This document shows positions 11,069-51,000 of a stretch of 64,000 bases of DNA, piece by piece. The stretch's first letter is position 1. Each line of letters opens with the position of its first letter. The notes under the pieces were generated by a model. That model had not been told where the DNA came from, made no database searches, and saw nothing but the letters and a program-made list of their open reading frames with translations. A program made the position numbers and the translations under genes. This DNA is from Diadema antillarum (taxonomy: Eukaryota), in assembly GCF_040938485.1 (NCBI RefSeq), contig NW_027271099.1, positions 1,302,001-1,366,000 of the forward strand, read 5' to 3'.

Positions 11069-12500
11069 GAAGGTTTGAAAGTGCCCTGTGCGCATTAAAC
11101 GCAGTAGTACATGTATCTTTGGTACAGTGGCCAGTTAAGTCGATGGTATTACGTAACCCGTAGGAAATGACTGGTCTCTATGGAGTGGGGCGGGAAATTT
11201 AAAACTTCCTTTACTCGACTTCAGGTTCATTCGGCCTTTACATGGGTGTTGAGTGTATCGCTCACATTTCCCATAGATATTCACAGTAAGCAAGCAAGCT
11301 GGTGCCAGAAACCATCTCCATGAAGTGGGGCGGGAGATTTGAATTTCCTTTACTCGAGTTCACGTTCACTCGGCTTTTGGTGGCTGTGGAGCATATCACT
11401 TGCAATATCGACATATTCAGAGCGAGCAATTTTTACTGCGACGTTGTAATTGAATTTTCCTCTGAACTTCAATACAATAAAAACAAAAACAAAACAAAAC
11501 AAAACAAAACAAAATAGAGCAAAACAGAACAAAACGCTAGAGCTTGAGGGAATTCATCATTGTATCGTACCAAGCTGAATAAACAGTAGAGATGATTATA
11601 CATGTCTGTTATTATCGAGTTATGATATCAGATAGATAACTCTCGTTGTATTCCCCGACAAAAGCATGGGATTGACGCATTTATTCGTAGTCGAGATTTT
11701 TGTTAAGAGGTGGTTATTTTCGTTTCGTGGTTTGTTTTTTGTAGTTTGGTCGGTTTGATATACTACACCGAAAACGAAGAAGTTTTTTTTTTCTTGAAAC
11801 ATTAGCCCGTTTTCTTCATTTAATTTTGCGGACGTTTACATCGTGCACGATAATATGAAGAATGATTTTGTTCGCGAATGAGAATGTATTTGCATTTCTC
11901 GCATTCATTTGTGTTTTATGTGTAAGCAATTTTAGTTGCTACCTGTGCGTTGCGATATATGATCTGCGAGGTTTCCTTTCTGCTGAGTTGTGTTTTTCCT
12001 GCGATAGATCTTTGGTTTATGATAGCTTTGTTTACCGACCATTCTTTTTTTTTTTCTAACGTGCGTGTAATTCAGGTTGTATTACAGTTTCCACTTCAAT
12101 AATCCTTGTATATTAAGCTTTGCATTAATTCGACAGTGTTTAAATGTAAGACAGTTAAGTGAAGCTCGCAAATGTTGTGAAAAAGTTTTTGTGTATTCAC
12201 AACTTCAAGTATTTTACTTGAGAGTGCATGAGACTATCATTTAACTAACAGCGTGACTACAATACGTGAGCAAGACTACCAGTCATTTTCATAAAGGTAT
12301 GGGGTCCTATATACAGTGTTTTGGTTGGCCATTGAAGGTTTGGAAGTGCCTGTTAATACATAACGCAGTGGGGGATCTGTGTACAGAGGCCAGAAATCAT
12401 TCAAGCGTGGCAGTATTACGTAACCGTAGGAAATTACCACTCTGCGTAATGTGGGGCGGGAGTTATAATCTTCCTTTACTCGAGACGAGGTTCATTCGAG
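11069..12500 (+). repeat. Dispersed direct repeats (~170 bp x2 plus one partial) with GC box, upstream of the ZnF-PolB gene
   Basis: GAAGGTTTG..AAGTGCC..ACGCAGT..GTATTACGTAACC..GTAGGAAAT..GTGGGGCGGGA..TTCCTTTACTCGA..GGTTCATTCG at 11069-11235 and 12334-12500; partial copy at ~11318-11395. Confidence 0.8.
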
Positions 12501-12626
12501 CTTTGGCAGCTGTGGAGCGTGGACCTCTGGAAGTTCAAGAAAGAAGTGTGTTTCTACTCATGTTGTGTAATCTTTGTTGATTACACCGGCCCGATGTTCT
12601 TACAGTAATAGAATACTAAAGCCACC

Positions 12627-15600
12627 ATGGAAGACGACTGTCGCAGATTTAGTTGTGAGTTTTGCAGCGCAGATTTCACAGAGAAAAAGAATTTGTTGCG
12701 CCACCATCGTGTATTTCATCAAGGACAGAGAGTATTGCACGTGTGTGATTTGTGTGGAAAAGGTTTCAGTCGGCCAGATAGTCTCAAACGACACATGAAA
12801 ACCCACCAAGATCCGAATAACGTTAAAACAAATGGTGAAGACCAGCGTCTAACTTGCTCACAGTGTGATGCACAATTCATAGAACAGAAGCATCTTGATG
12901 AACACGTGAAAACGCATCGCCTGAAAGAAACCTTTTTGTGTCATACGTGTGGACGGACATATTATCAACGTGAGAAATTTATGAAACATCTGGATTCCCA
13001 CCGACCCCGGACTCTTCAAAAAACACCCAAAAAGCGAGCACTTGAACAACAAGGAAACCAAGCAAAAAGTAGGTATAATTATTAAACTTAAAACAATGAC
13101 TGTGATGAAGGGGTAATAAAGAAGCTATACAAATCTGTTAAAATAGATTTTGAATTTTGCCATCACATCGATAACAAATGAATTTCAAATACTTATTAAG
13201 TTTGTTTTATATTCCCACCGTGTGATATCGATATGAGTACCAGTCAGCACGGAGAAAAAAAAAATGAATATCTCTATACTATGTGAATAGAGCCCAAGCT
13301 ACCAACATCAGAGATCGGCGTAAAATATATCTAGATACAGTATATATTTTTTCTTTTTTTTTTTACATTGAATAAGTGTAGTTAACATCGCATGTCAATA
13401 TTTTATTTTAGCGTTCATTGATGTGTGTATGGTATTGTGTGTGTGTGATTATGTGTGTTATTTTTTTTTTCTAGAATTTTTCAGTTCCTTCAAAATGTAC
13501 TGACGCGATATTCATGTGTCTTATAGCCAGAATTTCGCTAAGATTCATGTAATACTATCAAAATGTCTTTCAACGTTGAAACATAGAATGCTCCATGAAT
13601 GTTACATATCTATAAATGTCATCTAGTTTACACTTTCACGATAAAATTAGTTTAATGAGTTTGTTTCTTACAAGACCTAGTCAGTTCTCACGTGGTTTAA
13701 AGTACAAACATAGAGAAAACAGAGACTTCTTTGTAGCGTGGAAGAGACAACACACATGTATGCTTGAGTGTGACTTCAGATCGTAACAAAAATACAAAAA
13801 GTAATGAATAAAATAATTGAAATAACAGTAGACCTTCCCTGCATCGTTGTTTTTTTTAAAGCATGGTTACATGCATCATTGTGATGTTTTTACTTGCTGT
13901 TTCGTTCATAGTTGTTTAACACAGATCCATTCAAGTTTATAGTTGAATCAATGAAGAGTGAATTGTCGTAGGCGCACAATATTAACTTCTTAACTCAATT
14001 TAAACCGCAAAATATACGTACATGTATTTCCTTTCCAGAATATATTCCTATTTAAAGCGTAATGCCGCGATATATGTGCTACAGTGTACACGTACAGTAC
14101 ATGAGGCTTCAATTTAAGAAACAAATACTGTGTACCAATTAATGTACTTAATTTTCAGGACGTCGCGACCGGGCTGACTTGATACCAGTTATCAACGTTC
14201 CTCCGCACATCGATCCTGAAAGCTGCGCCGCCCAAGTGTACAGGGAACATTGGCTTGACATTCAAGATAGAGAGTCGTTTGGCAGAGTTCATCGCTTTTA
14301 CAACTTTCATCTTCCAAACCTTAACAACGAAATTCTTCGAGAAAAAGCGCAAAAAGTGTTCGAACAACAGTCTACCGTATTTAAGATCAATGCGTCTTAT
14401 GGTTTTGTATTGTGTAACAATGAAACAAACGAGTGTCGCTATTATTATGCCAGTAGAAATAACAGACTTTTCAATGAACCCGCTCTCATTTCAGACGAAA
14501 CATCATTCCAAAAGTTTTTGGATGAATTTCTCAAAGAAGATGTGCTGGAATATGCTCGAACACTTCGCCCAAATTCCAAATGGGTGGTTCAGCATATCAC
14601 GAATGTGACGTTCTACGTGTTTTGTATCAAAGATCATCCGATAGGTACTGGAATTGATCTCCCACTTTACATACTAAATAACAAGTCCATTGTTTCTTTA
14701 GCCAACAGCCATAGAGATGGTCGGGTATATGACGATAACTTGTGTCTTTTTAGATGTCTAGCTCTTTTCCGAGGGGTAGATCCTCGATGTCTTGAAACCA
14801 AGGCCAAAAAATTGCTGAAACAGTATACAGGCCTACCTCATGTTTCCACCTCAGAGTTTTCAGGCGTTAGACTCGGTCATTTGAGTAAAGTGGAAGAGTT
14901 CTTTAAGATCAATATTATGGTGTACGAGTTACAACCAGTACAATGTAGTGATGATGTAGATGTGACAGAATGTGAAAAGAAACTGGCAGACAATGATAAT
15001 GTAACAGTAGCCGCTAAACTCGTCCGACGGGGACTGGACAAATTTCCAGATACTATGTATGTAAATCTATACGAAAATCATTTCAGCTTCATCACAGATA
15101 TTGAACAATATTGCCAAAATTTCCAATGCCGCACATGTGGCAAACTTTGGAAAACTCGAAAGTCACTTCATCGACACGAAAAAATGTGTACTTCTAAAGC
15201 AACTAAGCATATTTTCCCTAAGGGAAGAGCTACATTTCACAACCCCTTTACAATATGGGAAGAGTTGGCTGATGAAGGGATTTTGGTTGAAGAAGACCGC
15301 AGATACTTTCCTTATTTTGCTACCTTCGACATGGAGTCTTACCTAGAAAAGATAGAAAACGGCAACGACCTGAATGATACCCCCACTGACAAATTACAAT
15401 ATAGCTCTAGACATATTCCGATGAGTGTAAGCGTTAACTCAAACGTTCCCGGGTACACGGAACCATTTTGTCAAGTGTCCGATGGAGACTCACAAAAACT
15501 AATCGATGACACTGTGATGTATATGTTAGAAATCAGTCGTCGTTCTTATTCTTTGCTTCAGTCTTTCTACAAGGACGTCACAGAAAAATTAGATCTAAAA

Positions 15601-18075
15601 ATACAAGAATTTGAAACCTCGCAAACGAAAAACAAAGACAAGCCTAAGAAAGCAACCCATCTCATGAGACTAAAACAACGGTTTGTCAATCACATCGAAG
15701 AACTGCCTGTGGTTGGGTTTAATTCGGGGAGGTATGACATTAATGCAATTAAACAATTTCTCTATCCTTCGCTTTTAAAGTATGATTCGGTCGACTTTGT
15801 GATAAAGCGAAACCATAATCACATGGCTCTGAAGTCGCAGCATCTCCAGTTCTTAGATATTTCAAATTTTCTTGCCCCTGGATTTTCGTACGCAGCATTT
15901 CTAAAGGCATATGACTGCGAACAGGGGAAAGGTTACTTTCCTCATGGCTGGGTAGATTGCCTCGATAAACTGAATGAATCTGAACTTCCCCCTATTGAAG
16001 CTTTCAGGGATAATCTCAACCATACCTCCTTTTCAAGAGAGCAGTATGAATACTGTCAGCGCATCTGGAAACAAAATAAGATGTCTTGCCTGAGAGATTA
16101 TTTGATATGGTACAATAATCTCGACGTTACACCTTTCATTGAAGCTGTGGAGAAGATGCGTGAGTTCTATATAAATCTCAAAATCGATCTGTTCAAAGAC
16201 GGTATTTCAGTTCCTGGACTTACCATGAAGTATCTGATAAAATGTAGCCCAGAGGCACACTTTAGCTTGATCTCGGAGAAAGACAAGGATCTCTATTACA
16301 CATTCCGTGATAATTTGGTGGGAGGTCCGTCTATCATTTTTCATAGGTATCATGAGCGTAACGTAACAAAAATTCGTGGGGGTAAGCCATGTAAAAAGAT
16401 AGTTGGTTTTGATGCAAATGCGTTGTATCTACACGCAATTATGCAAAGAATGCCAACAGGCCACTATGTAAGACGACGTATCGAGAATAACTTTAAGCCA
16501 GAAAATAGGCATCCGATCGCCCAAGAGTGGTTAGAATACGAAAGTTTTTGTCGACAAATTCCCATTCGACATGCCGGTAACCATTCTGAAAAGAAAATCG
16601 GACATCTACAACTTCCCGTGGATGGCTTTTGTGCCGAAACCAAACAAGTATTTGAATTTCATGGATGCTACTTCCATGGACATCCTTGTCATCTCAATAA
16701 GGGTCAGACAAAGAATACCAAACTGGGAAAAACTATGGAGGAATTGCTGGAAAAGACCGAGGAAAAACGGCGATACGTACAAAGTCTGGGTTATGAGTAC
16801 ATTTCCATTTGGGAATGTGAGTATAAACAAATGCGCAAAACTGATCCCAAACTAAGCGCTTTTCTCACGGAAAGGTTTCCTCCTCCTAAATACCGTCATG
16901 GGTTGACCCAAGAGAATCTTCTCTCTGCTATTCAACATGGTGCTCTCTTTGGGTTCGTTCAGTGTGATATCCATGTGCCTGATCATCTTACAGAACACTT
17001 TTCAGAAATGTGCCCAATTTTTAAGAATGTAGACATATCTAGAGAAGATATCGGGGACGTGATGGGATCCTACGCCAAGGAACATGACATCATGAACACT
17101 CCTAGGCGTAGCTTAATTGGTAGTATGTTTGGCCAGAACATTCTACTGTACACACCTCTACTCCAATGGTATCTTCGCCATGGATTGGTCGTATCCAAGA
17201 TACACCAGTTTGTGGAGTACAAGCCCGTTGCCTGTTTCAAACACTTTGGTGAAAGCGTGTCAAATGCTAGACGTAGGGGTGATATTGATCCCTCTAAGAG
17301 CATTATAGCTGACACCATGAAACTCATCGGCAACTCGTCTTATGGTAAAACAATAACAAATAAGGAAAGACATCGAAACGTCAATGTTTGCGATGGGAAG
17401 AAAGCCGAGAAACACGTTAACGATACATTTTTCCGGGACTTGAACCCCATCTCAGACAATTGTTACGAGGTTGATATGGCAAAGAGAAAGATTACCATGG
17501 ACCTTCCTGTTCAAATCGGTCATGCCGTCTACCAATTAGCGAAACTACGTATGCTTCAGTTTTATTACGATTTTCTCTTGGAATACGTGGATCTGTCAGA
17601 CTTTCAAATGTGCGAAATGGATACTGACTCCGCTTATATCGCCATTTCGTCCGAGTCGTTCGATAACATAATCAAACCCAATATGAGACAGAAGTATGAA
17701 AACAACAAGGCACACTGGTTTCCTCGAAACGATACCCCCGAGAACGCTCGATATGATAAGAGAACACCTGGGTTATTCAAAGTAGAGTGGGAGGGGGATG
17801 GGATAATAGCACTTTGCAGTAAAACGTATTACTGTTTTGGTCCTACTGACAAATTCAGTTGCAAAGGGATCAATAAGAAACAAAATGACATTTCAAAAGA
17901 TACGTACCTGCAGGTACTCCGTTCAAAGGTTGCTGGTAGTGGCATCAACAAAGGATTTCGTGTGGTCCAAAACGGAATTTCCACTTATTCACAAATTAAG
18001 AATGCCTTTACCTACTTCTATCCAAAGAGAAAGGTATTGGAAGACAACGTTTCAACTACCTATTTGGACATTTAA
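12627..18075 (+). CDS. polB: Spliced C2H2 zinc-finger / protein-primed family B DNA polymerase fusion (predicted 1452 aa); join(12627..13068,14159..18075)
   Basis: Exon 1 encodes four C2H2 fingers. Donor A|GTAGGT (13069) and acceptor TTTTCAG| (14158) are both phase 1 and join in frame. Exon 2 has vOTU-like LCLFRCL/NHFSFI, exonuclease FDMES, GFNSGRYD and YNNLDV, and polymerase DANALY, KLIGNSSYGK, MDTDS and KFSCKGI motifs; no stop codons. The PolB call is firm; the splice is inferred. Confidence 0.88.
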
Positions 18076-18439
18076 GATAAAGTGAAGCTGTTGTCATTAG
18101 ATCATTCTCTCTATATACATTTTGTTATCTTTGTTTGCTTGTTTTGACATTGGATAGTATCAATGCACGCTCTCAATAATGAAAGGAACTGTATCATATA
18201 GTTGTCACATCGCAGTGTCATCGGTTAGTCGTTGATAACCTAAGCTTTATATGTGAAATGCTTTTGACCTTTCTTTTCTCTCTCTCTCTCTCTAAGTGAT
18301 AATATTCTGTTTCATTTTTACGAGTGTATTTGTCCTGTATATTGCGTATTTTTTACTCACGTACACGCAGTATGGCACACCATTAAAACCGATGGTTATA
18401 CCGTCAGTCAATTCAGACCCGCATGTCAAAACTGACTTC

Positions 18440-18856
18440 AGAAGAATAGGTATTGGTATATAGATAGAGTGGCGTATAGATAGAGTTGGGGGGGCTTAAT
18501 CCCTTGCTCTGGGGGGGAAGTCGTAAAAAAAGATGAGGGTATGAATGGGGTGCGATATGAAAATATAAGGGTAATGGAGTTACGTGTCAGGTGTATGAGA
18601 AAGAGTTGATGGTAGTGAATGTTGGTAAATGGTGAAATTATGGTGGTATTTTATGGGTCAAGTTGAAGTTTGACAGACTTGTTCACATGATTTATAACGT
18701 GTTGTGTGAAAGGTTGGAGAGCATCGACTGGTGTGATTTTTTTGGAGCAAGGAAATATGTGAAGAATGATGGTAGTTACGTTCAAAGATTGGGATTAATT
18801 ATGATGGTGGGGTAAAGCTGTGGTAGAAAGTGTATAAATAACTTGACAGCGAGGAG
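18440..18856 (+). repeat. Polinton left terminal inverted repeat
   Basis: Reverse complement of 33869-34307 apart from small indels; 5'-AG terminus (AGA AGA); inward-facing TATAAAT at 18833-18839. Confidence 0.93.
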
Positions 18857-18933
18857 AACGACATGCATTTGCTGTTGCGATTTTTTTAGCTGTGAGCAAA
18901 TTGACTGTGAGTCTACAACATTCCGACTTTATC

Positions 18934-19624
18934 ATGACTTCTGCTTCATCATCGTACGCTGCTGTAGCGGCATCAGAGGAAAACCGTGCACTACTATCTC
19001 CGCATCAGTTGGCAGAGAACTTGCTTAACAACGCTTTCCAGGTAAGATTCGAAACGTAGTTTTGATACAATGTATAGTGTCGTTTGTATTGTGGATATCA
19101 TGTCGTAATGATCGAGTGTTGGCGTACAGTATTTTTTTTTGATGATGTCTGTTTCGTTGAATGTGCTACTGAAAGTTGAAATATGGCGTTGCGTGATAAT
19201 GATGATCGCTGATGGGATGATGGTAGTAGGTTTAAACGTTCGTAGTATTTGTTGATTTGTTTTTTTAAATTTTATTTGATAGGATTCGTCGTGTGAAAAT
19301 GTAAGCAAGATGCAACCGACAACTAGTGAAAATCAGCCTTTAGAAAAACCGTACAAATTCGAGGAGGGTGTCAAAGCTGCGTTTGAAATTGGGAAATCTC
19401 GTTTTGTAGTAGTCAAAACGTTTTATGGGAAACCCTACGTGAATATCAGGGAATATTATCAGAAAAAAGATAGTGGACCAAAAATGTTTGCTGGAAAAAG
19501 AGGCATCAATCTCACTTTAGAAAACTGGAAAGAGTTCATGAAAGTGATGAGGTCGGTAAATGCTCATGTCACCGAAGCGGATAGGTTTTTGTCAAAGCAG
19601 AGAAAGTTGAAGTCAACGAAGTGA
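18934..19624 (+). CDS. PC4/p15-like ssDNA-binding protein; join(18934..19041,19283..19624), 149 aa
   Basis: FEIGKSRFVVVKTFYGKPYVNIREYY...GKRGINLTLENW matches the PC4 fold signature. An upstream ATG exon ends CAG|GTAAGA and joins in frame (phase 0) at TTTGATAG|GAT. Confidence 0.85.
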
Positions 19625-19901
19625 ACTTTATATCTTGTTTGTTTGTTTGTTTGTGTTTTTGAAATACATTTTTTATTAATGTGAAAGTCAAATTGATACA
19701 AGGAGTGAGAACATTATACAAAATAGAAGAAAAAAAAGTTAACCAACAGGGGGATGATGGATAGGCGTGGAGATTATTTATTTATTTATTTTTTTTTTTA
19801 CAAAGAAAAAAAGAAGAAATAGAATAGTCGAAGGTTGTGTCGGACTAGTATATTTACGGTTGCTTTCTTCGCTGTGCATTATCTACCCTGCTCTACAACA
19901 G

Positions 19902-20591
19902 GATGCTCGCGCCGAACTTGAGCCTGGGGAGATTGTCAGCGGAGGCGATACACCTCCCTGTGTGGTGTTATCTCCCTTTAAAAGTCCTCGTTTTTGCTGG
20001 GCTCCGGAACGGTCGGGGCAGCTAGCTGAGATACCCCAAGCCTTGCTGGACGAAGTAAGGACAACTATCCAGTTTGGTGCTGTGCCTGGGTCTGAGAAGG
20101 AGGATGAGGGGAAGAAGGAGGAGGGAGGACACGCCGGTTGGCAGGACCAAGACGGAGAGGAGGAGGAGGAAAAGAGGGATGAGAAGGAGGACGGAGACCG
20201 GACCAAAACTGGGAAGGAGGAGGAGGAGGAGGAGACGGCGAGTCTCTCGGCGTCGCTGATGGTTGTAGTTGGAGCGGTGGTGACGAGAAGGATTAATGAG
20301 GTGGTACGTTCTCGCTGCTACGGTTGCCAACACGACCGGCCAGGACAGATGGACCATGTAGAGTGTTTGTGGAGGAGTTGGAGTGAAATAGTCGATGATT
20401 ATTTTGATGAAGCAATCAGGTCAGTCAGTGAGACTGACCTGATTGGACAACTGCGCCAGATTTATCATTGGGAGGAACTCTTTGAAGAGGATAGAGAGCT
20501 GTTGGTGGTGGAAATGGTGGAGTTTTTCCACTTTCAGTTAGGTAGAGAAGCAATACAGAAAACACTTAAAAAACAGGTGTTAAGCTTGTAA
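19902..20591 (+). CDS. Polinton accessory protein with acidic tract and CYGC...H..C putative metal-binding motif; 5' exon uncertain
   Basis: ORF 19767..20591; RCYGCQHDRPGQMDHVECL resembles a motif I recall from small Maverick ORFs. No ATG before 20258; good acceptor CTCTACAACAG| at 19901. Confidence 0.6.
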   Translation, partial: DARAELEPGEIVSGGDTPPCVVLSPFKSPRFCWAPERSGQLAEIPQALLDEVRTTIQFGAVPGSEKEDEGKKEEGGHAGWQDQDGEEEEEKRDEKEDGDRTKTGKEEEEEETASLSASLMVVVGAVVTRRINEVVRSRCYGCQHDRPGQMDHVECLWRSWSEIVDDYFDEAIRSVSETDLIGQLRQIYHWEELFEEDRELLVVEMVEFFHFQLGREAIQKTLKKQVLSL

Positions 20592-21106
20592 CCAGTTTTG
20601 TACAGCTCCTCCCTCCTTTTTTTTTTTGTCATCCGAGCTCTTTTTTTCCTTTTTTTTTTTGTTACTCTCTACCACAGCCGCTCCCAACCCCAACCCCCCT
20701 CCCCCAATAACAAATAAGCAAATATACTAGTTTGCTAGATAGCTAGCTCCCTATGGATTATTTTTATATGGATGTAATACGTGTATAACATGATGCTACT
20801 CAGTAAATTTGCGAATAAAAGCCTTTTTTTTAATACTGTATGGATGATTCCGTGAAAATTTGAAACTCGTTTGTATTTTGTTGATTTTATTGATAGTGTT
20901 TACAAACAAAATTGTGGATTTGTTGATGTTGTTTGGTGAATTCTGGGCTTACTCGTTCGTGCACTCTAGATTTAGTATGATCGATTGCTTGAGTGAATAT
21001 GCGTATACCCGTATGTTTCGCGCACCGACATGTCCTTGATATGGATATATTCATATACATGTACGTAACAATATTTACATATACATTTCTTTTAAATATA
21101 CAATTG

Positions 21107-21140
<34 letters not shown>

Positions 21141-21304
21141 ATCTTGAAATAGATTAAGGGGGTATTAGAAAATAAACAAACGAACAAACAAACAGATAGA
21201 CAAAATGGGTAGAGAGAAGGAGACAGACAGACAGACAGATAGACAGATTTGAGTTATAAGCGAGCTGAAGAACGGTGCGAGTGCATTTGAATAGCTATTA
21301 TTAA

Positions 21305-22420
21305 ATGCGTGAGGTTGTTAATGCGGATGCAATGGATGGATATCTGAGACAAATATACTTTAATCCTGAGCATGAGGCGAGTTTTGGCGGTGTAGATCGC
21401 TTGCATAAGTTTGTTAAGGAGGACGGTGTACATAAGCTGTCACGCAAACAAATTAAGGAGTGGTTAGCGAGCGTTGATACTTACACACTTCACAAACCCG
21501 TAAGGCGAACATTTCCTAAGAGTAAGGTGTTAGTGACTGGTATGGATGAACAATGGCAAATGGATCTGGTAGATGTGTCTTCACTTTCTAGACATAACGG
21601 TGGTAACAGATATTTGCTTACTGTCATAGATGTCCTCTCAAAATATGCTTGGGTGGTAGCGTTGAAAGACAAAACTGGCATTGCATTAACATGGGCTATC
21701 AAGGGTATTTTTAAATCAGGGCGCGTACCGTTAAAGATACAAACAGATAAAGGGACGGAATTTACGAATCGCCGAGTACAGACATTTTTAAAGGAGAGAG
21801 ACATAGAGTTTTTTACTACGGAAAATGACACGAAGGCGAGCGTGGTTGAAAGGTTTAATAGAACTCTCAAAGAAAAAATGTGGAAATATTTTACCCATAG
21901 AAATACTTTGAAGTACACAACGATTCTCCAAAAGCTAGTGACGGCCTACAATAATAGCTACCACAGATCTATCAAAACTAAGCCCAATCTCGTCAGCAAA
22001 AGGAACGAAGGAGACGTTTGGAAAACATTGTATAAAGACTCTATCTCGATCAAGTCTGATAGTGGGTATAGTGGAAAGTTTGAGAAAGGTGACCGAGTGC
22101 GTATTAGCAAGGCCAAGCAAAAATTTGAAAAGGGGTATTTACCAAATTGGACAGAGGAACTGTTTAATGTCAAACGTCGCAAATACAGAGGCTTACCTAT
22201 TTACGAATTAGAAGACGATAAGGGAGAATCGCTTACGGGCACCTTTTACGAACCAGAATTGCAGAAAGTAAACAAACCGAAAGAGGGCTATTACGGAGTT
22301 GAACAAGTGCTTAAGACGAGAAAGAGAGGAAAGAAAAGGCAGTATTTTGTCAAATTTGTTGGTTATCCTTCCTCTTTTAATCAGTGGGTAGATGAGATAG
22401 ATAAAGAGTATCATAACTGA
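21305..22420 (+). CDS. int: Retroviral-like (rve) integrase with C-terminal chromodomain-like region
   Basis: DDE triad in WQMDLVD, IQTDKGTEF and VVERFNRTLK; C-terminal YGVEQVLKTRKRGKKRQYFVKFVGYPSSFNQWV. Confidence 0.96.
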   Translation: MREVVNADAMDGYLRQIYFNPEHEASFGGVDRLHKFVKEDGVHKLSRKQIKEWLASVDTYTLHKPVRRTFPKSKVLVTGMDEQWQMDLVDVSSLSRHNGGNRYLLTVIDVLSKYAWVVALKDKTGIALTWAIKGIFKSGRVPLKIQTDKGTEFTNRRVQTFLKERDIEFFTTENDTKASVVERFNRTLKEKMWKYFTHRNTLKYTTILQKLVTAYNNSYHRSIKTKPNLVSKRNEGDVWKTLYKDSISIKSDSGYSGKFEKGDRVRISKAKQKFEKGYLPNWTEELFNVKRRKYRGLPIYELEDDKGESLTGTFYEPELQKVNKPKEGYYGVEQVLKTRKRGKKRQYFVKFVGYPSSFNQWVDEIDKEYHN

Positions 22421-22448
22421 CTAGATTGTCATTTATGATTGGGTCACG

Positions 22449-48083: not shown

Positions 48084-51000
48084 TTACTGGGCAGACAAGT
48101 ACTGTGTCAGTGCAGATCGCACTGCAGAAGCTGTGCCATGATTATCTGCACGAGGAGCTTGGTTTGTGACACGAGGAGTGTGGACATTGTCATGGAAGTA
48201 CCACTCATCATGGAAAGGATTTCCATGCGCCTCAACAATGTTGTGGAGGATGCAGCATGCCACTGTTATTTTAGCAACATTTTCCAATTCATGGTCAATT
48301 TTCTTAGAGAGAATTCTCCAACGACCCTTCAACCTACCAAAGGAATGCTCTACAGTAATTCGACATGTGCTCAGTTTGTAATTGAATCTATTTTGTTGAG
48401 GGGAGAGACGGCCAGTGTCGCTATAAGCTTTCATTAAATTTGGCATTAAGGGGTAAGCAGGGTCACCGAGTAACATGACTGGTACAGGGACATTATTAAT
48501 TACCTTTGGTGGGATGGGAAAAAGGGTTTTGTTTTGGAGTTTCCTAAAAATACTTGAATTTGAAAAGACTCTAGCATCGTGCACACTTCCTGGCCAGCCA
48601 CAATTAATATCAATAAACAGGCCAAAACTGTCTACTACTGCCTGAAGAATAATTGAGTAAAAACTCTTGCGATTATAATAATCAGAATGGTGGTTTCGCG
48701 GTGCTCGAATGGGAATGTGGGACCCGTCGATGGCTCCTGCCGCTTGTGGGAATCCCTTCCCCTCGAAGCGCTGGATGCACTCCTGAAATAAAAAGAATAA
48801 AAAAAACCTTTTAGAAATTTGCTCTTTTGTCTATTGTCATAAGTATTACAATGATAATTCTAGCTAACAGAAATGTTTTTTTTTTTCATGAGATTTTTGT
48901 TTTATTTACGTGTACTTTTGACAGTCTGCTGACAAAATTTAAAGCGGGGGTGGGGGAGATGCCACGTGTCTGTGAAGAGATCGAATCAGTATCATAACTT
49001 CAGTGAAAGACAAAAAAAAAATAATTGACTTATCAATGCAGAACTAATTAAATAAAATAAATTAATTTAGTTGCATTCCTGGCATTAATATAACTGCTGC
49101 GAAGTACTTGGGATTTTTAGTATGCCTTCATCCCTAGGTGCAAATACAATTTAATTTGAGGGTAGTATTAGTTCCTCTAAAGTAACTACCCCATTTCCCC
49201 CTACAATCACTTCCTCCTTTTGAATTTCTTTGATAGCCAAAACAAGCTAGTAGACTTATAAATGTACAAATGTACCTGCAGTCTCTGTCCAGTTGGAATG
49301 GCAATGTGTCGACCCTTTAGCTGGCGTACGATGATATGAATTGTCTCAAGAAAAATAACACACACGGTGGACCTCCCGACGCCAAACAAACCAGCCAGAG
49401 TACGATATTCAATGTTTGTTGCCAGCTTCCATAAAGTGATGGCAAGACGATGATCTGGTGAGATGGCTTTGCGCATCCTTGTGTTCTGTTTCTGAAGGTG
49501 GGGACGGAGTTCATTGAGCAGGTATTGGAATGTTGCTTTCCTCATCCTGAATAGTAGAAAAAAATACACCAAGGTTGGATATAATTGAATAAGTTATTTG
49601 AATAACTTATCTCCTAGTGGATGTAAAATTAAAAAAAAAAAAATAGGCCTTTAAAAACAGATGTGAAAGTGGGTTCCGTCAAGTTTCATTATTTTAGTCC
49701 TTGATCTTTTTTCTGAACTCAGTGCAATTCTGGTAACAGAATGAAATTTAAAATTCAATTAGGCCCTAATGAAGTAGTCTCCTTTTAACATTTGATTATT
49801 TTCATGTGAGGTTATCATTTTTTGTTTACTTAACTTAGATTGGAAAGAATTGACAAATATTTAAATATTTTGACTCTAGAAGTCGGAAAATTTTGCTTGC
49901 TCACGAGTGTCTCGAGTATTCTGAACATCGTGCGTGCCATATCATAGTGTATTCATAGATAAAGTTGTTAAACCTAGCTCGGCGGCGTATTTCTTTAGTA
50001 GAGACTATACAGGGTCTAGACTAATAGTATAGGTGTGTTTTGTACTGTACTGGGACTCAGTGGGAGGAGTCTATGCCAGTGAGTAAGTACATATAGCCAT
50101 AGGGCCTACTTGGGAGACCCGCAACTCGTCATAGTTAATGTTTGCGCATATTTGAATCACATTTCGCCACTGAAATTCTCTGAAATCCAACTCATATACA
50201 AGAAAAATGCTGAAAATTCCAATGGAATTACAAGTTCACTGATCGATATCGAAAATTTGCAGCTATCGTCAAACGCGAACGATGCAGAATAGCTGTGCGC
50301 TAAGGAAGGGGCCCGCAACTCGTCACCAGCGCTCCCATTGACTTATCACGACGGTCGTAAAAGACGTGTACGAGTGACCGTGTATGCTCCCATAGACATA
50401 CAAGTAAAAGATACGTGCGGGTGACAGTGATGAAATGCTTTCATAGCACGTATTCCTAATATAAATTTCAGATTTTCGCGAAAAACTGTTCGGTTTTCAC
50501 CACAATTGGCTTGGTTGTGGTAGCCCTGCAAAGTTTCATGCGAACTGAAGACAGTCCAGGGCATTACAGAATACCGGCAACCAATCACGGAGAGCGCAAA
50601 TCGCTCTGAAAAGAGCGTAATTACGCTTGCCGATAGCAACCATCTGAAATATTAATCCGCATTAAATTAATGTTTATAACGACTAAATAACGTTAGTGCG
50701 CTAACAGGAACACAATTTTAAGCGGGCTGACGTTGCTGACAGCATGACAGTATTCGGAATTCGGGCCCCCTGACGAGGTGCGGGCATCTCACTTACGTTA
50801 CAAATACAATACTATTACTAGTCAGAACGGTACGGTATAATTACAATTACAACGTGGCTAACCTGAAGTTCTCCAACCACAATTTGTCGTCCCATGTGGC
50901 GAGTACTACATGCGTCCACCAATGCATGGACTTTGGCAATGACCAAACGGATCTCGGCACCTCAGATTTATCTGTGTACATTGACAGTAGGAGAGACATG

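Follow-up and report, generated by a model that had tools for sequence, protein, structure and literature searches.

The subject of this analysis is a gene of Diadema antillarum for a family B DNA polymerase of the protein-primed kind (pPolB), and the element that carries it, in a stretch of 64,000 nucleotides (assembly GCF_040938485.1, contig NW_027271099.1, positions 1,302,001 to 1,366,000, forward strand; hereafter the window). Window positions 14152–18075 (+) hold one open frame of 1307 codons containing the motifs DANALY, KLIGNSSYGK, MDTDS and TPGLFKVE. An earlier reading made from the letters alone (the sequence-only reading) had placed an uninterrupted pPolB beside a complete Polinton, and both the frame and all of the quoted motifs were found. 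The closeness of the gene to the Polinton's left terminal inverted repeat (TIR) was likewise confirmed, with a measured gap of 364 bp rather than the 365 bp given. An ATG at 12627, 5’ of the polymerase frame, opens a stretch with four C2H2 zinc fingers, and a phase-1 GT at 13069 and a phase-1 AG at 14158 give a spacing of 1090 bp. Exon 1 (12627..13068, +), as read from frame and motifs, comprises the four fingers and a basic stretch, KTPKKR. Comparison across subfamilies places a predicted phase-1 GT-AG intron of 1090 bp at 13069..14158 (+). Exon 2 (14159..18075, +) was assigned from motifs and a structural model and encodes a predicted terminal-protein-like domain, vOTU Cys/His motifs, an internal C2H2 finger, a 3’-5’ exonuclease and the pPolB with an endonuclease-like insertion; it had no Pfam match. 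An alternative donor at 13073 was rejected, being in phase 2 and without a fitting acceptor. The sites and phase of the intron proposed in the sequence-only reading are well supported by comparison but have no read support; the 13068/14159 joint was absent from 15 of 58 joints listed (four runs, contigs), which is evidence neither way. The beginning of a 3’ non-coding spacer, identified by flank comparison with other copies, occupies 18076..18439 (+).

The gene had been described as an orphan with no TIR of its own, and this description was incorrect. Window positions 8364–18439 are the left 10 kb of an element of approximately 15.5 kb. Its ends are AGTAGT, its inverted repeats measure 3.7 kb and it is flanked by a 6-bp target-site duplication (TSD). 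The left TIR (8364..12041, +; 3.68 kb) begins AGTAGT, is 99% identical to the right TIR on another contig, C193, and contains 26 same-strand GTGGAG motifs; it is preceded by the left copy of the TSD, ATTGTA (8358..8363), whose right copy follows the right end of the element on C193. A DNA search of the same genome returned 17 other full-length copies at 93–100% identity and further families near 70%. Flank comparison showed that homology starts sharply at 8364 and that the element ends are AGTAGT...ACTACT. In uninterrupted copies, an inverted copy of the left end, 3.3–4.0 kb in length, lies 2–3 kb past the stop codon. Two of these (C166 and C1224), which are 99–100% identical, have approximately 2.2–3.2 kb of non-coding DNA after the gene and then the right TIR; this refutes, at this locus, the suggestion that the unit is a second Polinton lineage truncated by the insertion.

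Besides the window, 45 loci were examined. A perfect 6-bp TSD was present at 30 of them, and all 30 hexamers were different; the remaining 15 were cut by a contig end, interrupted, decayed or altered at their ends. TSD-bearing ends were not found at C616 (right end only), C596, C394, C96, C1316, C1617, C899, C202, C1880, C694 (two) and C664:624433, and two copies on C120 have altered ends. Twenty-six of the 30 bounded copies measured 14.5–16.6 kb, three 11.4–11.5 kb and one 19.0 kb; the complete Polintons resident in this genome measured 15.9–17.6 kb. TIR length across element families ranged from 1.3 to 5 kb. Mavericks are described as having TIRs that start with (AGT)2 or (AG)3 and a 6-bp TSD (PMC8097293, in the part available), and the (AGT)2-type start together with a 6-bp TSD was found here at the 30 loci as well as in the window/C193 pair. 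The mapping of genomic copies called for in the sequence-only reading therefore defined shared ends. In family I (C1392, C655, C76) the TIR has expanded to 4.7–5 kb and takes in the last ~200 codons of the polymerase gene; the 3’ end of the gene is therefore present a second time, inverted, on its upstream side. The copy at C58:2724810-2728594 combines family-B ends with a 3’ half at 97% and a 5’ half at 90% identity to family A, and is likely a recombinant between subfamilies. A short repeat of very high copy number (depth in thousands) was noted at window positions 8301–8362, and the element was inserted a few bases from its end.

The neighbouring Polinton (18440..34307) has AGAAGA ends, TIRs of ~420–440 bp and genes for PC4, integrase (INT), penton, core, major capsid protein (MCP), protease, ATPase and a pPolB of another class; it is nested in the element and is not part of it. 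Its pPolB is 1400 codons long, matches PF03175 at 6e-49 and contains DFTSLYP, KLLLNSLWGR, YYDTDS and GELTDE. The two pPolBs thus differ at their core motifs, as had been noted, and have one significant block in common (31% over 182 amino acids). The flanks of this Polinton do not match. The left flank ends in GACTTC (18434..18439, +), the TSD of the nested Polinton and the last 6 bp of the element's 3’ spacer; the right flank begins with CATGTC (34308..34313), the TSD of another Polinton insertion, one that has its left end on C193. That contig carries a further copy of the window Polinton, flanked by CATGTC on the left and on the right by GACTTC and then the rest of the element, including the right TIR (99% identical to 8364–12041) and finally ATTGTA, the hexamer preceding 8364. 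Empty alleles were found on C58 for the CATGTC site and on C47 for the ATTGTA site (one copy, ATTGCA, no element). The mismatched flanks and their mirror image on C193 indicate that the Polinton inserted into the element and that two loci were swapped across near-identical 16-kb Polinton copies, with CATGTC marking the reciprocal swap (window 18440–34313 with C193:516772-541240, C58:3544803 and C47:655887). This is likely a misjoin (C211 + C193) rather than a true reciprocal recombination, and the DNA right of 34307 probably comes from another locus than the DNA left of 18440. The C193 Polinton has an insertion of ~3 kb in its right TIR region.

Because the right arm of the window element lies on C193 through this swap, the adjacency of the two polymerases is incidental. 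Four other copies of the window Polinton with both ends read have ordinary matching TSDs elsewhere, and six other near-identical copies are on contigs without copies of the element, the swapped C193 arm excepted. Co-occurrence of the element with this Polinton family was accordingly rejected, and the pairing of two pPolBs at one locus, to which the sequence-only reading had attached meaning, is a nested insertion and a chance adjacency. The possibility of misassembly raised there applies to the junction with the right flank, which is probably a misjoin, but not to the gene, which is intact and uninterrupted on other contigs. The chimeric nature of the window locus, and the annotation of homologues as host genes in several animals, could be taken to suggest an assembly artefact or a host-domesticated polymerase gene. 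This explanation is scarcely credible: independent sequencing runs span both the window gene and its TIR, intact uninterrupted copies exist on other contigs, and the insertion evidence (dispersed, recent, heterozygous copies with distinct TSDs and an empty allele on C47) refutes a host-retained polymerase.

Searches were performed for the genes that normally accompany a Polinton polymerase. With the proteins of the window Polinton as tblastn queries (cut-offs of E 1e-5 for 28 loci and 1e-4 for the other 17), no INT, ATPase, protease, penton, core, PZ, PW or PC4 was detected at any of the 45 loci. Nine profile hidden Markov models (HMMs), built from 7–30 natural proteins each (30 sequences for INT), detected no integrase or capsid-module genes in 35 elements, and the same profiles recovered such genes in metagenome Polintons. 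The bounded elements examined had no second long frame, so no DDE integrase or helicase lies beside the polymerase. An MCP scrap of ~47 codons with stops or indels was found ~1.25 kb after the gene in subfamilies A, B and C only (tblastn E 3e-7, 2e-6 and 7e-11; windowed profile 13–17 bits against a control maximum of 12.2). Candidate protease, core and PW relics in the TIRs scored 9–14 bits against the same maximum for the control (reversed sequence) and were rejected. The absence of an integrase and of intact capsid genes, as distinct from the absence of a TIR, therefore held at 45 loci, and none of these (0/45) has the INT or intact capsid genes expected if the other copies sat inside ordinary full-length Polintons. 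This genome also holds complete Polintons that have the other class of polymerase, AGTAGT ends, a 6-bp TSD and INT (C225, C498, C32 and C1346); these are candidate helpers. A separate 10.5-kb element, C976:797869-808381, carries INT, penton, core, MCP and protease without polymerase or ATPase; it has the ends of the C498/C32 Polinton family, a perfect 6-bp TSD and broken frames.

The polymerase gene, on the other hand, is maintained. The copies fall into ten subfamilies with 51–96% protein identity, and a frame of more than 1200 codons is kept at 25 of 35 loci. The exonuclease, polymerase and vOTU motifs are kept as well; motifs Exo I–III and Pol A–C were found in the window and 17 other copies, with the few misses of the pattern search being variants. 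The dN/dS ratios (Nei-Gojobori) among A, B and C were 0.19, 0.14 and 0.14, and within F they were 0.15 and 0.145. Near-identical copies gave approximately 0.5, based on fewer than 10 changes; in deeper family pairs, with protein identity of 52–77%, synonymous sites were saturated. The polymerase gene is under purifying selection, and the proposed dN/dS comparison between copies gave 0.14–0.19 where it was measurable. A phase-1 donor and acceptor are present at the equivalent place in six subfamilies, the donor being GTAAGT in five and GTAGGT in A. Fingers and polymerase are in a single frame in G, H and I, and the fingers are split in E. A predicted intron or a split gene is thus present in seven of the ten subfamilies, and the elements do not have the intronless gene expected of Polintons. 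Public proteins show the same fusion of fingers to polymerase.

A model of the polymerase based on an alignment (pLDDT 85.8) contains an alpha/beta N-terminal domain, a vOTU region, an exonuclease and a polymerase in that order, which matches the terminal protein-vOTU-exonuclease-polymerase order described for pPolB in the accessible text of PMC11071308. The N-terminal domain (model residues ~10–145) is confidently modeled, and its order of strands and helices is as would be expected for a terminal protein. Among solved structures the best fold was phi29 polymerase (Foldseek E 4.7e-10; VIA Z 19.4, root-mean-square deviation 4.0, 450 aligned), and the best whole-length matches among viral models were bidnavirus and adintovirus polymerases; these whole-model searches are dominated by polymerase and exonuclease, and the terminal-protein and vOTU parts are barely probed by them. 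The vOTU region is assigned from sequence motifs and the model: every family has DNLC[LF] before the exonuclease, and A, B, C, D, J and H also have ENHF/GNHF. The zinc fingers precede the terminal-protein/vOTU region and do not replace it.

At E 1e-20, 1945 proteins matched the window polymerase. Named relatives were from a sea urchin, sea cucumbers, sea stars, a brittle star, amphioxus and a sea anemone, many of them with N-terminal fingers. Among 35 metagenome contigs of at least 5 kb, 25 had other Polinton genes beside the polymerase and 10 did not. The 10 are uninformative because most end near the 3’ end of the gene, where the ATPase or protease follows in complete elements, and they are scattered on the tree (7 changes). 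Complete or near-complete Polintons with the zinc-finger polymerase were seen in marine metagenome contigs (L155-L165, L174, L177, L183, L187, L190) in at least three gene orders. IMG/VR viral contigs gave no relative, whether queried with a single protein or with an alignment. In a 73-row FastTree phylogeny, in which deep supports are Shimodaira-Hasegawa-like (SH-like) only and from which two near-copies (L159, L165) and one split frame (L140) were left out, the 10 intact representatives from this genome were on one side of a branch (SH-like 99) that excluded 19 gene-accompanied relatives. Proteins labeled Lytechinus, Amphiura, Apostichopus and Holothuria, whose genomic context was unread, were on the same side. 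From this split, the zinc-finger polymerase derives from complete Polintons, and the one-gene state is a single lineage, at least within this genome.

The existence of complete Polintons with this polymerase type elsewhere (L122, L155-L165, L187) also supports a different explanation, in which the elements are ordinary non-autonomous deletion derivatives of an unseen or recently lost complete zinc-finger-pPolB Polinton and selection acted in that parent. The decayed MCP scrap in A, B and C agrees with it, and the C976 element, which retains INT and capsid genes without a polymerase, demonstrates that deletion derivatives do arise. However, this explanation requires a separate unseen parent for each of at least eight lineages that are 51–77% identical. 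A, B and C share the same already-decayed scrap and spacer, yet have maintained dN/dS at 0.14–0.19 since their split, which argues that selection acted after the loss. When the C-terminal part of a complete-Polinton polymerase was used as a query, the intact hits, judged by frame length or inspection, all belonged to these families; this result covers 97 of 146 candidates, a coverage that itself leaves room for a parent. Complete vertebrate Mavericks are reported as intronless in the available text of PMC8097293, as opposed to the split gene in seven subfamilies. Derivation by simple deletion is, in our judgment, improbable.

The elements have gene-less derivatives of their own. A search with the end pattern of families A, B and D identified 44 ends, compared with 0 for the control, and led to 11 further loci with no intact gene; these are TIR-only or fold-back elements of 5–17 kb, most with a TSD. 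In three of them (C209, C778 and C894) the outermost 86 bp are identical (100%) to those of family D, with similarity confined to exactly this stretch; inside their large palindromes are decayed polymerase pieces of the other class. The terminal 86 bp of family D include the finger motifs. Since gene-less elements have kept this segment with the finger motifs inside it, the 86 bp likely define a minimal cis-acting end. In the large palindromic gene-less elements (C209, C778, C894, C64, C1365) decayed Polinton-type polymerase pieces stand in inverted pairs 7–9 kb apart, and at least ten loci with such inverted pairs of remnants were listed.

These same-ended elements with other contents raise the possibility of a linear-plasmid-like or segmented-virus replicon, of which the element would be one segment: integrase and capsid genes would then sit on a second segment with matching ends, or else integration would be the work of another DDE enzyme that makes a 6-bp TSD (e.g. 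Ginger-like). The polymerase-less C976 element, with its INT and capsid genes, is the kind of partner expected, and the end sequence beyond AGTAGT is unlike that of resident Polintons. However, the ends of C976 belong to the C498/C32 Polinton family and not to these elements, and none of the 11 loci with the A, B or D end pattern has a frame for INT or capsid; what they hold is TIR DNA, remnants of decayed polymerase or the scrap. A bipartite arrangement is therefore considered quite improbable.

The relationship between the fingers and the element ends was analyzed next to the terminal sequence. The TIRs of A, B, C and F each contain 23–30 same-strand GTGGAG motifs, against approximately 2 expected, and three of the 26 in the window left TIR are in a 9-bp tandem at 8394–8420. 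A sub-terminal GTGGAG cluster at 8394..8425 (+) is the predicted binding site of fingers 2 and 1. The prediction applies the C2H2 recognition code, and the match of fingers to motif was first noticed post hoc. By this code, finger 2 (Arg-1, Ser3, Arg6) with finger 1 (Asn3, Arg6) would read G-Y-G-G-A-N, and Asn at position 3 of finger 2 would specify N-A-G. In the first 100 bp of the five Ser families G[CT]GG occurs 5, 3, 8, 6 and 4 times; it is absent (0) from the five Asn families, of which D, E, J and I carry NAGGA instead (4, 3, 4 and 3 times) and G carries GAGG (three times). The first 100 bp of four resident Polintons have 0–1 of either motif. The finger-2 residue tracks the end motif in 10/10 subfamilies, a match that amounts to only two independent tree contrasts (sign test p 0.5). 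Outside this genome, where the putative ends of the three elements considered were not confirmed by a TSD, GCG-NAG was predicted for L139 before its end was seen, and GCGCAG was found twice (4 of 1000 shuffles). L140 agreed only in part, missing the exact prediction but repeating GATTAG, one base off, and L191 failed. The small number of contrasts and these two outcomes weigh against a finger/end code; on balance, the fingers probably bind the element's own end motif.

C2H2 fingers are usually transcription factors. They could thus be transcription regulators here (autoregulation or host-factor mimicry, with a promoter in the TIR) and have no part in replication, the element being amplified by cut-and-paste with host repair. 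In A, B, C and F the full length of the TIR carries 23–30 occurrences of the motif, far above what an origin needs, which is in keeping with such a role. Against it, D, E, J, G and I have the motif clustered within the first 100 bp, the 86 bp that gene-less satellites have retained contain it, no other domain separates the fingers from the terminal-protein region to which they are joined, and purifying selection on all polymerase motifs requires an enzyme that benefits its own element. A purely transcriptional role is unlikely, and transcriptional and replicative roles are not mutually exclusive.

Taken together, it is quite likely that the element is a self-replicating, integrase- and capsid-less Polinton satellite, which is mobilized by a Polinton integrase in trans and amplified by its own polymerase. 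Of the options offered by the sequence-only reading, that of a capsid-less replicon or satellite dependent on Polintons is the one supported, by TIR and TSD boundaries at 30 of 45 loci and integrase or intact capsid genes at none. The putative dependence on a helper is suggested only indirectly, by the AGTAGT ends and 6-bp TSD in common with INT-bearing Polintons and by the clustering of lengths. In the proposed mechanism, a spliced or intronless mRNA would be translated into a zinc-finger/terminal protein/vOTU/exonuclease/polymerase polyprotein. Fingers 1–2 would likely bind the short motif that recurs 30–70 bp in from each end, thereby directing the terminal protein to the element's own origin. 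Strand-displacement copying via a panhandle could keep the long TIRs near-identical and yield the fold-back derivatives. A Polinton integrase would recognize the AGTAGT ends and both excise and insert the element in trans. The length of ~15 kb, kept with non-coding DNA, may fit Polinton capsids; this is the weakest step, suggested only by length. Self-amplification between excision and insertion would explain selection on a gene that is unable to insert anything.

Several observations weigh against the satellite interpretation. Family D measures 11.4 kb and the gene-less derivatives 5–17 kb, so a particular length is not required for insertion. The whole-frame HMM search missed the known MCP scrap, which means that faint relics or many-exon genes could escape it. 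Candidate scoring reached the 97 of 146 given above, and five near-full-length loci were not fetched. The zinc-finger fusion is also present in complete Polintons (L122, L141, L187 and others) and is not specific to the satellites. Beyond the first 6–7 bases, the element ends have no clear DNA similarity to eight resident Polinton stretches. Finally, the evidence includes no transcript or spliced read, nor any protein activity or extrachromosomal form.

A broader proposal is tentative and falls somewhat short of probable: an old marine-invertebrate lineage of one-gene, self-replicating Polinton satellites, with a family-specific finger/end code and a capsid-sized length of ~15 kb filled out by inverted repeats, that hijacks integrase and capsids and is itself parasitized by gene-less elements with the 86-bp end. 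If true, an animal genome would contain a three-tier chain of parasites, and there would be a first sequence-level handle on the choice of origin by a Polinton-type polymerase. Polintons are defined by polymerase and integrase, and we know of no Polinton origin or replication step shown at the bench. A polymerase-only lineage would mean that replication can persist as a module of its own, parasitic on those for integration and the virion. The match of finger residue to end motif, together with the 86-bp end, offers a short origin and a binding partner, so that the self-synthesis model, long proposed, could be tested with a small finger domain and an oligonucleotide. Such elements escape any survey in which a capsid or integrase gene is required, and their proteins are annotated as host zinc-finger genes.

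Other features of the window were also noted. The Polinton has two accessory frames without a Pfam match, one of 277 codons (19758–20591, +), acidic and cysteine-bearing, and one of 172 codons (28540–29058, -), a predicted membrane protein. A 332-codon frame at 1819–2817 (-) matches DUF7041 at E 1e-32 and presumably belongs to a retroelement as its gag-like portion. Two arrays of a 13-bp unit (GTACCACAGGACA), at 3066–4673 and 5625–6024, are in opposite orientation with ~1 kb of other DNA between them; the pair looks like a foldback or minisatellite-bearing element. A Harbinger-type DDE_Tnp_4 nuclease frame lies at 48084–48830 (-; E 5e-41).

In the literature as far as it was available (Repbase, the 2006 founding paper and supplements not covered, so that an obscure earlier listing is possible), no polymerase-only Polinton derivative and no self-encoded origin-binding fingers were found. 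Polintons/Mavericks resemble the element in their (AGT)2 ends, TIRs, 6-bp TSD, length of ~15 kb and terminal protein-vOTU-exonuclease-polymerase pPolB (PMC8097293 and PMC11071308, available parts). Two PolB classes are described in the Polinton group in the accessible text of PMC8502044, the Beta type being OTU-bearing and less than 30% identical to the PF03175 type, and two kinds of pPolB in one genome are therefore already known. The element polymerase may be of the Beta-type 'adintovirus' class: exon 2 has no Pfam match, the neighbour's pPolB matches PF03175 and the two have one significant block in common, but many homologues do have PF03175 hits. Unlike Polintons, the element has one gene, lacks integrase, ATPase, protease, penton and intact MCP, consists in large share of TIRs and has a predicted intron or split gene in seven of ten subfamilies. 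The non-autonomous Polinton derivatives of Kapitonov and Jurka (2006) reportedly have no intact polymerase and are simply derived from a resident family. They reportedly share with the element an integrase acting in trans, long TIRs and the same ends; the element differs in its intact polymerase under purifying selection, its own multi-family clade and its own gene-less satellites.

Transpovirons and pPolB+DDE modules are, like the element, capsid-less, TIR-bounded, polymerase-bearing and virus-dependent, and they keep a DDE integrase, with which pPolB is consistently paired in the examples given (10.64898/2026.10.13.758929, in the part available). The element has no DDE integrase and resides in an animal nuclear genome. 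Fungal linear plasmids usually encode an RNA polymerase. Such plasmids (pGKL, kalilo) resemble the element in having a pPolB fused to terminal protein, long TIRs and a lost morphogenetic module (PMC11071308, accessible text). They are extrachromosomal and outside the nucleus, whereas the element is integrated with a 6-bp TSD and has a predicted spliceosomal intron and N-terminal C2H2 fingers. In the case of adenovirus, pTP-Pol is recruited by the host factors NFI and Oct-1, whose binding sites adjoin the core origin. The predicted origin of the element is similar in that sequence-specific DNA-binding domains just inside the end would position the priming complex. Unlike that of adenovirus, the predicted origin-binding module is encoded by the element itself in fusion with the terminal protein, and it changes along with the end motif.

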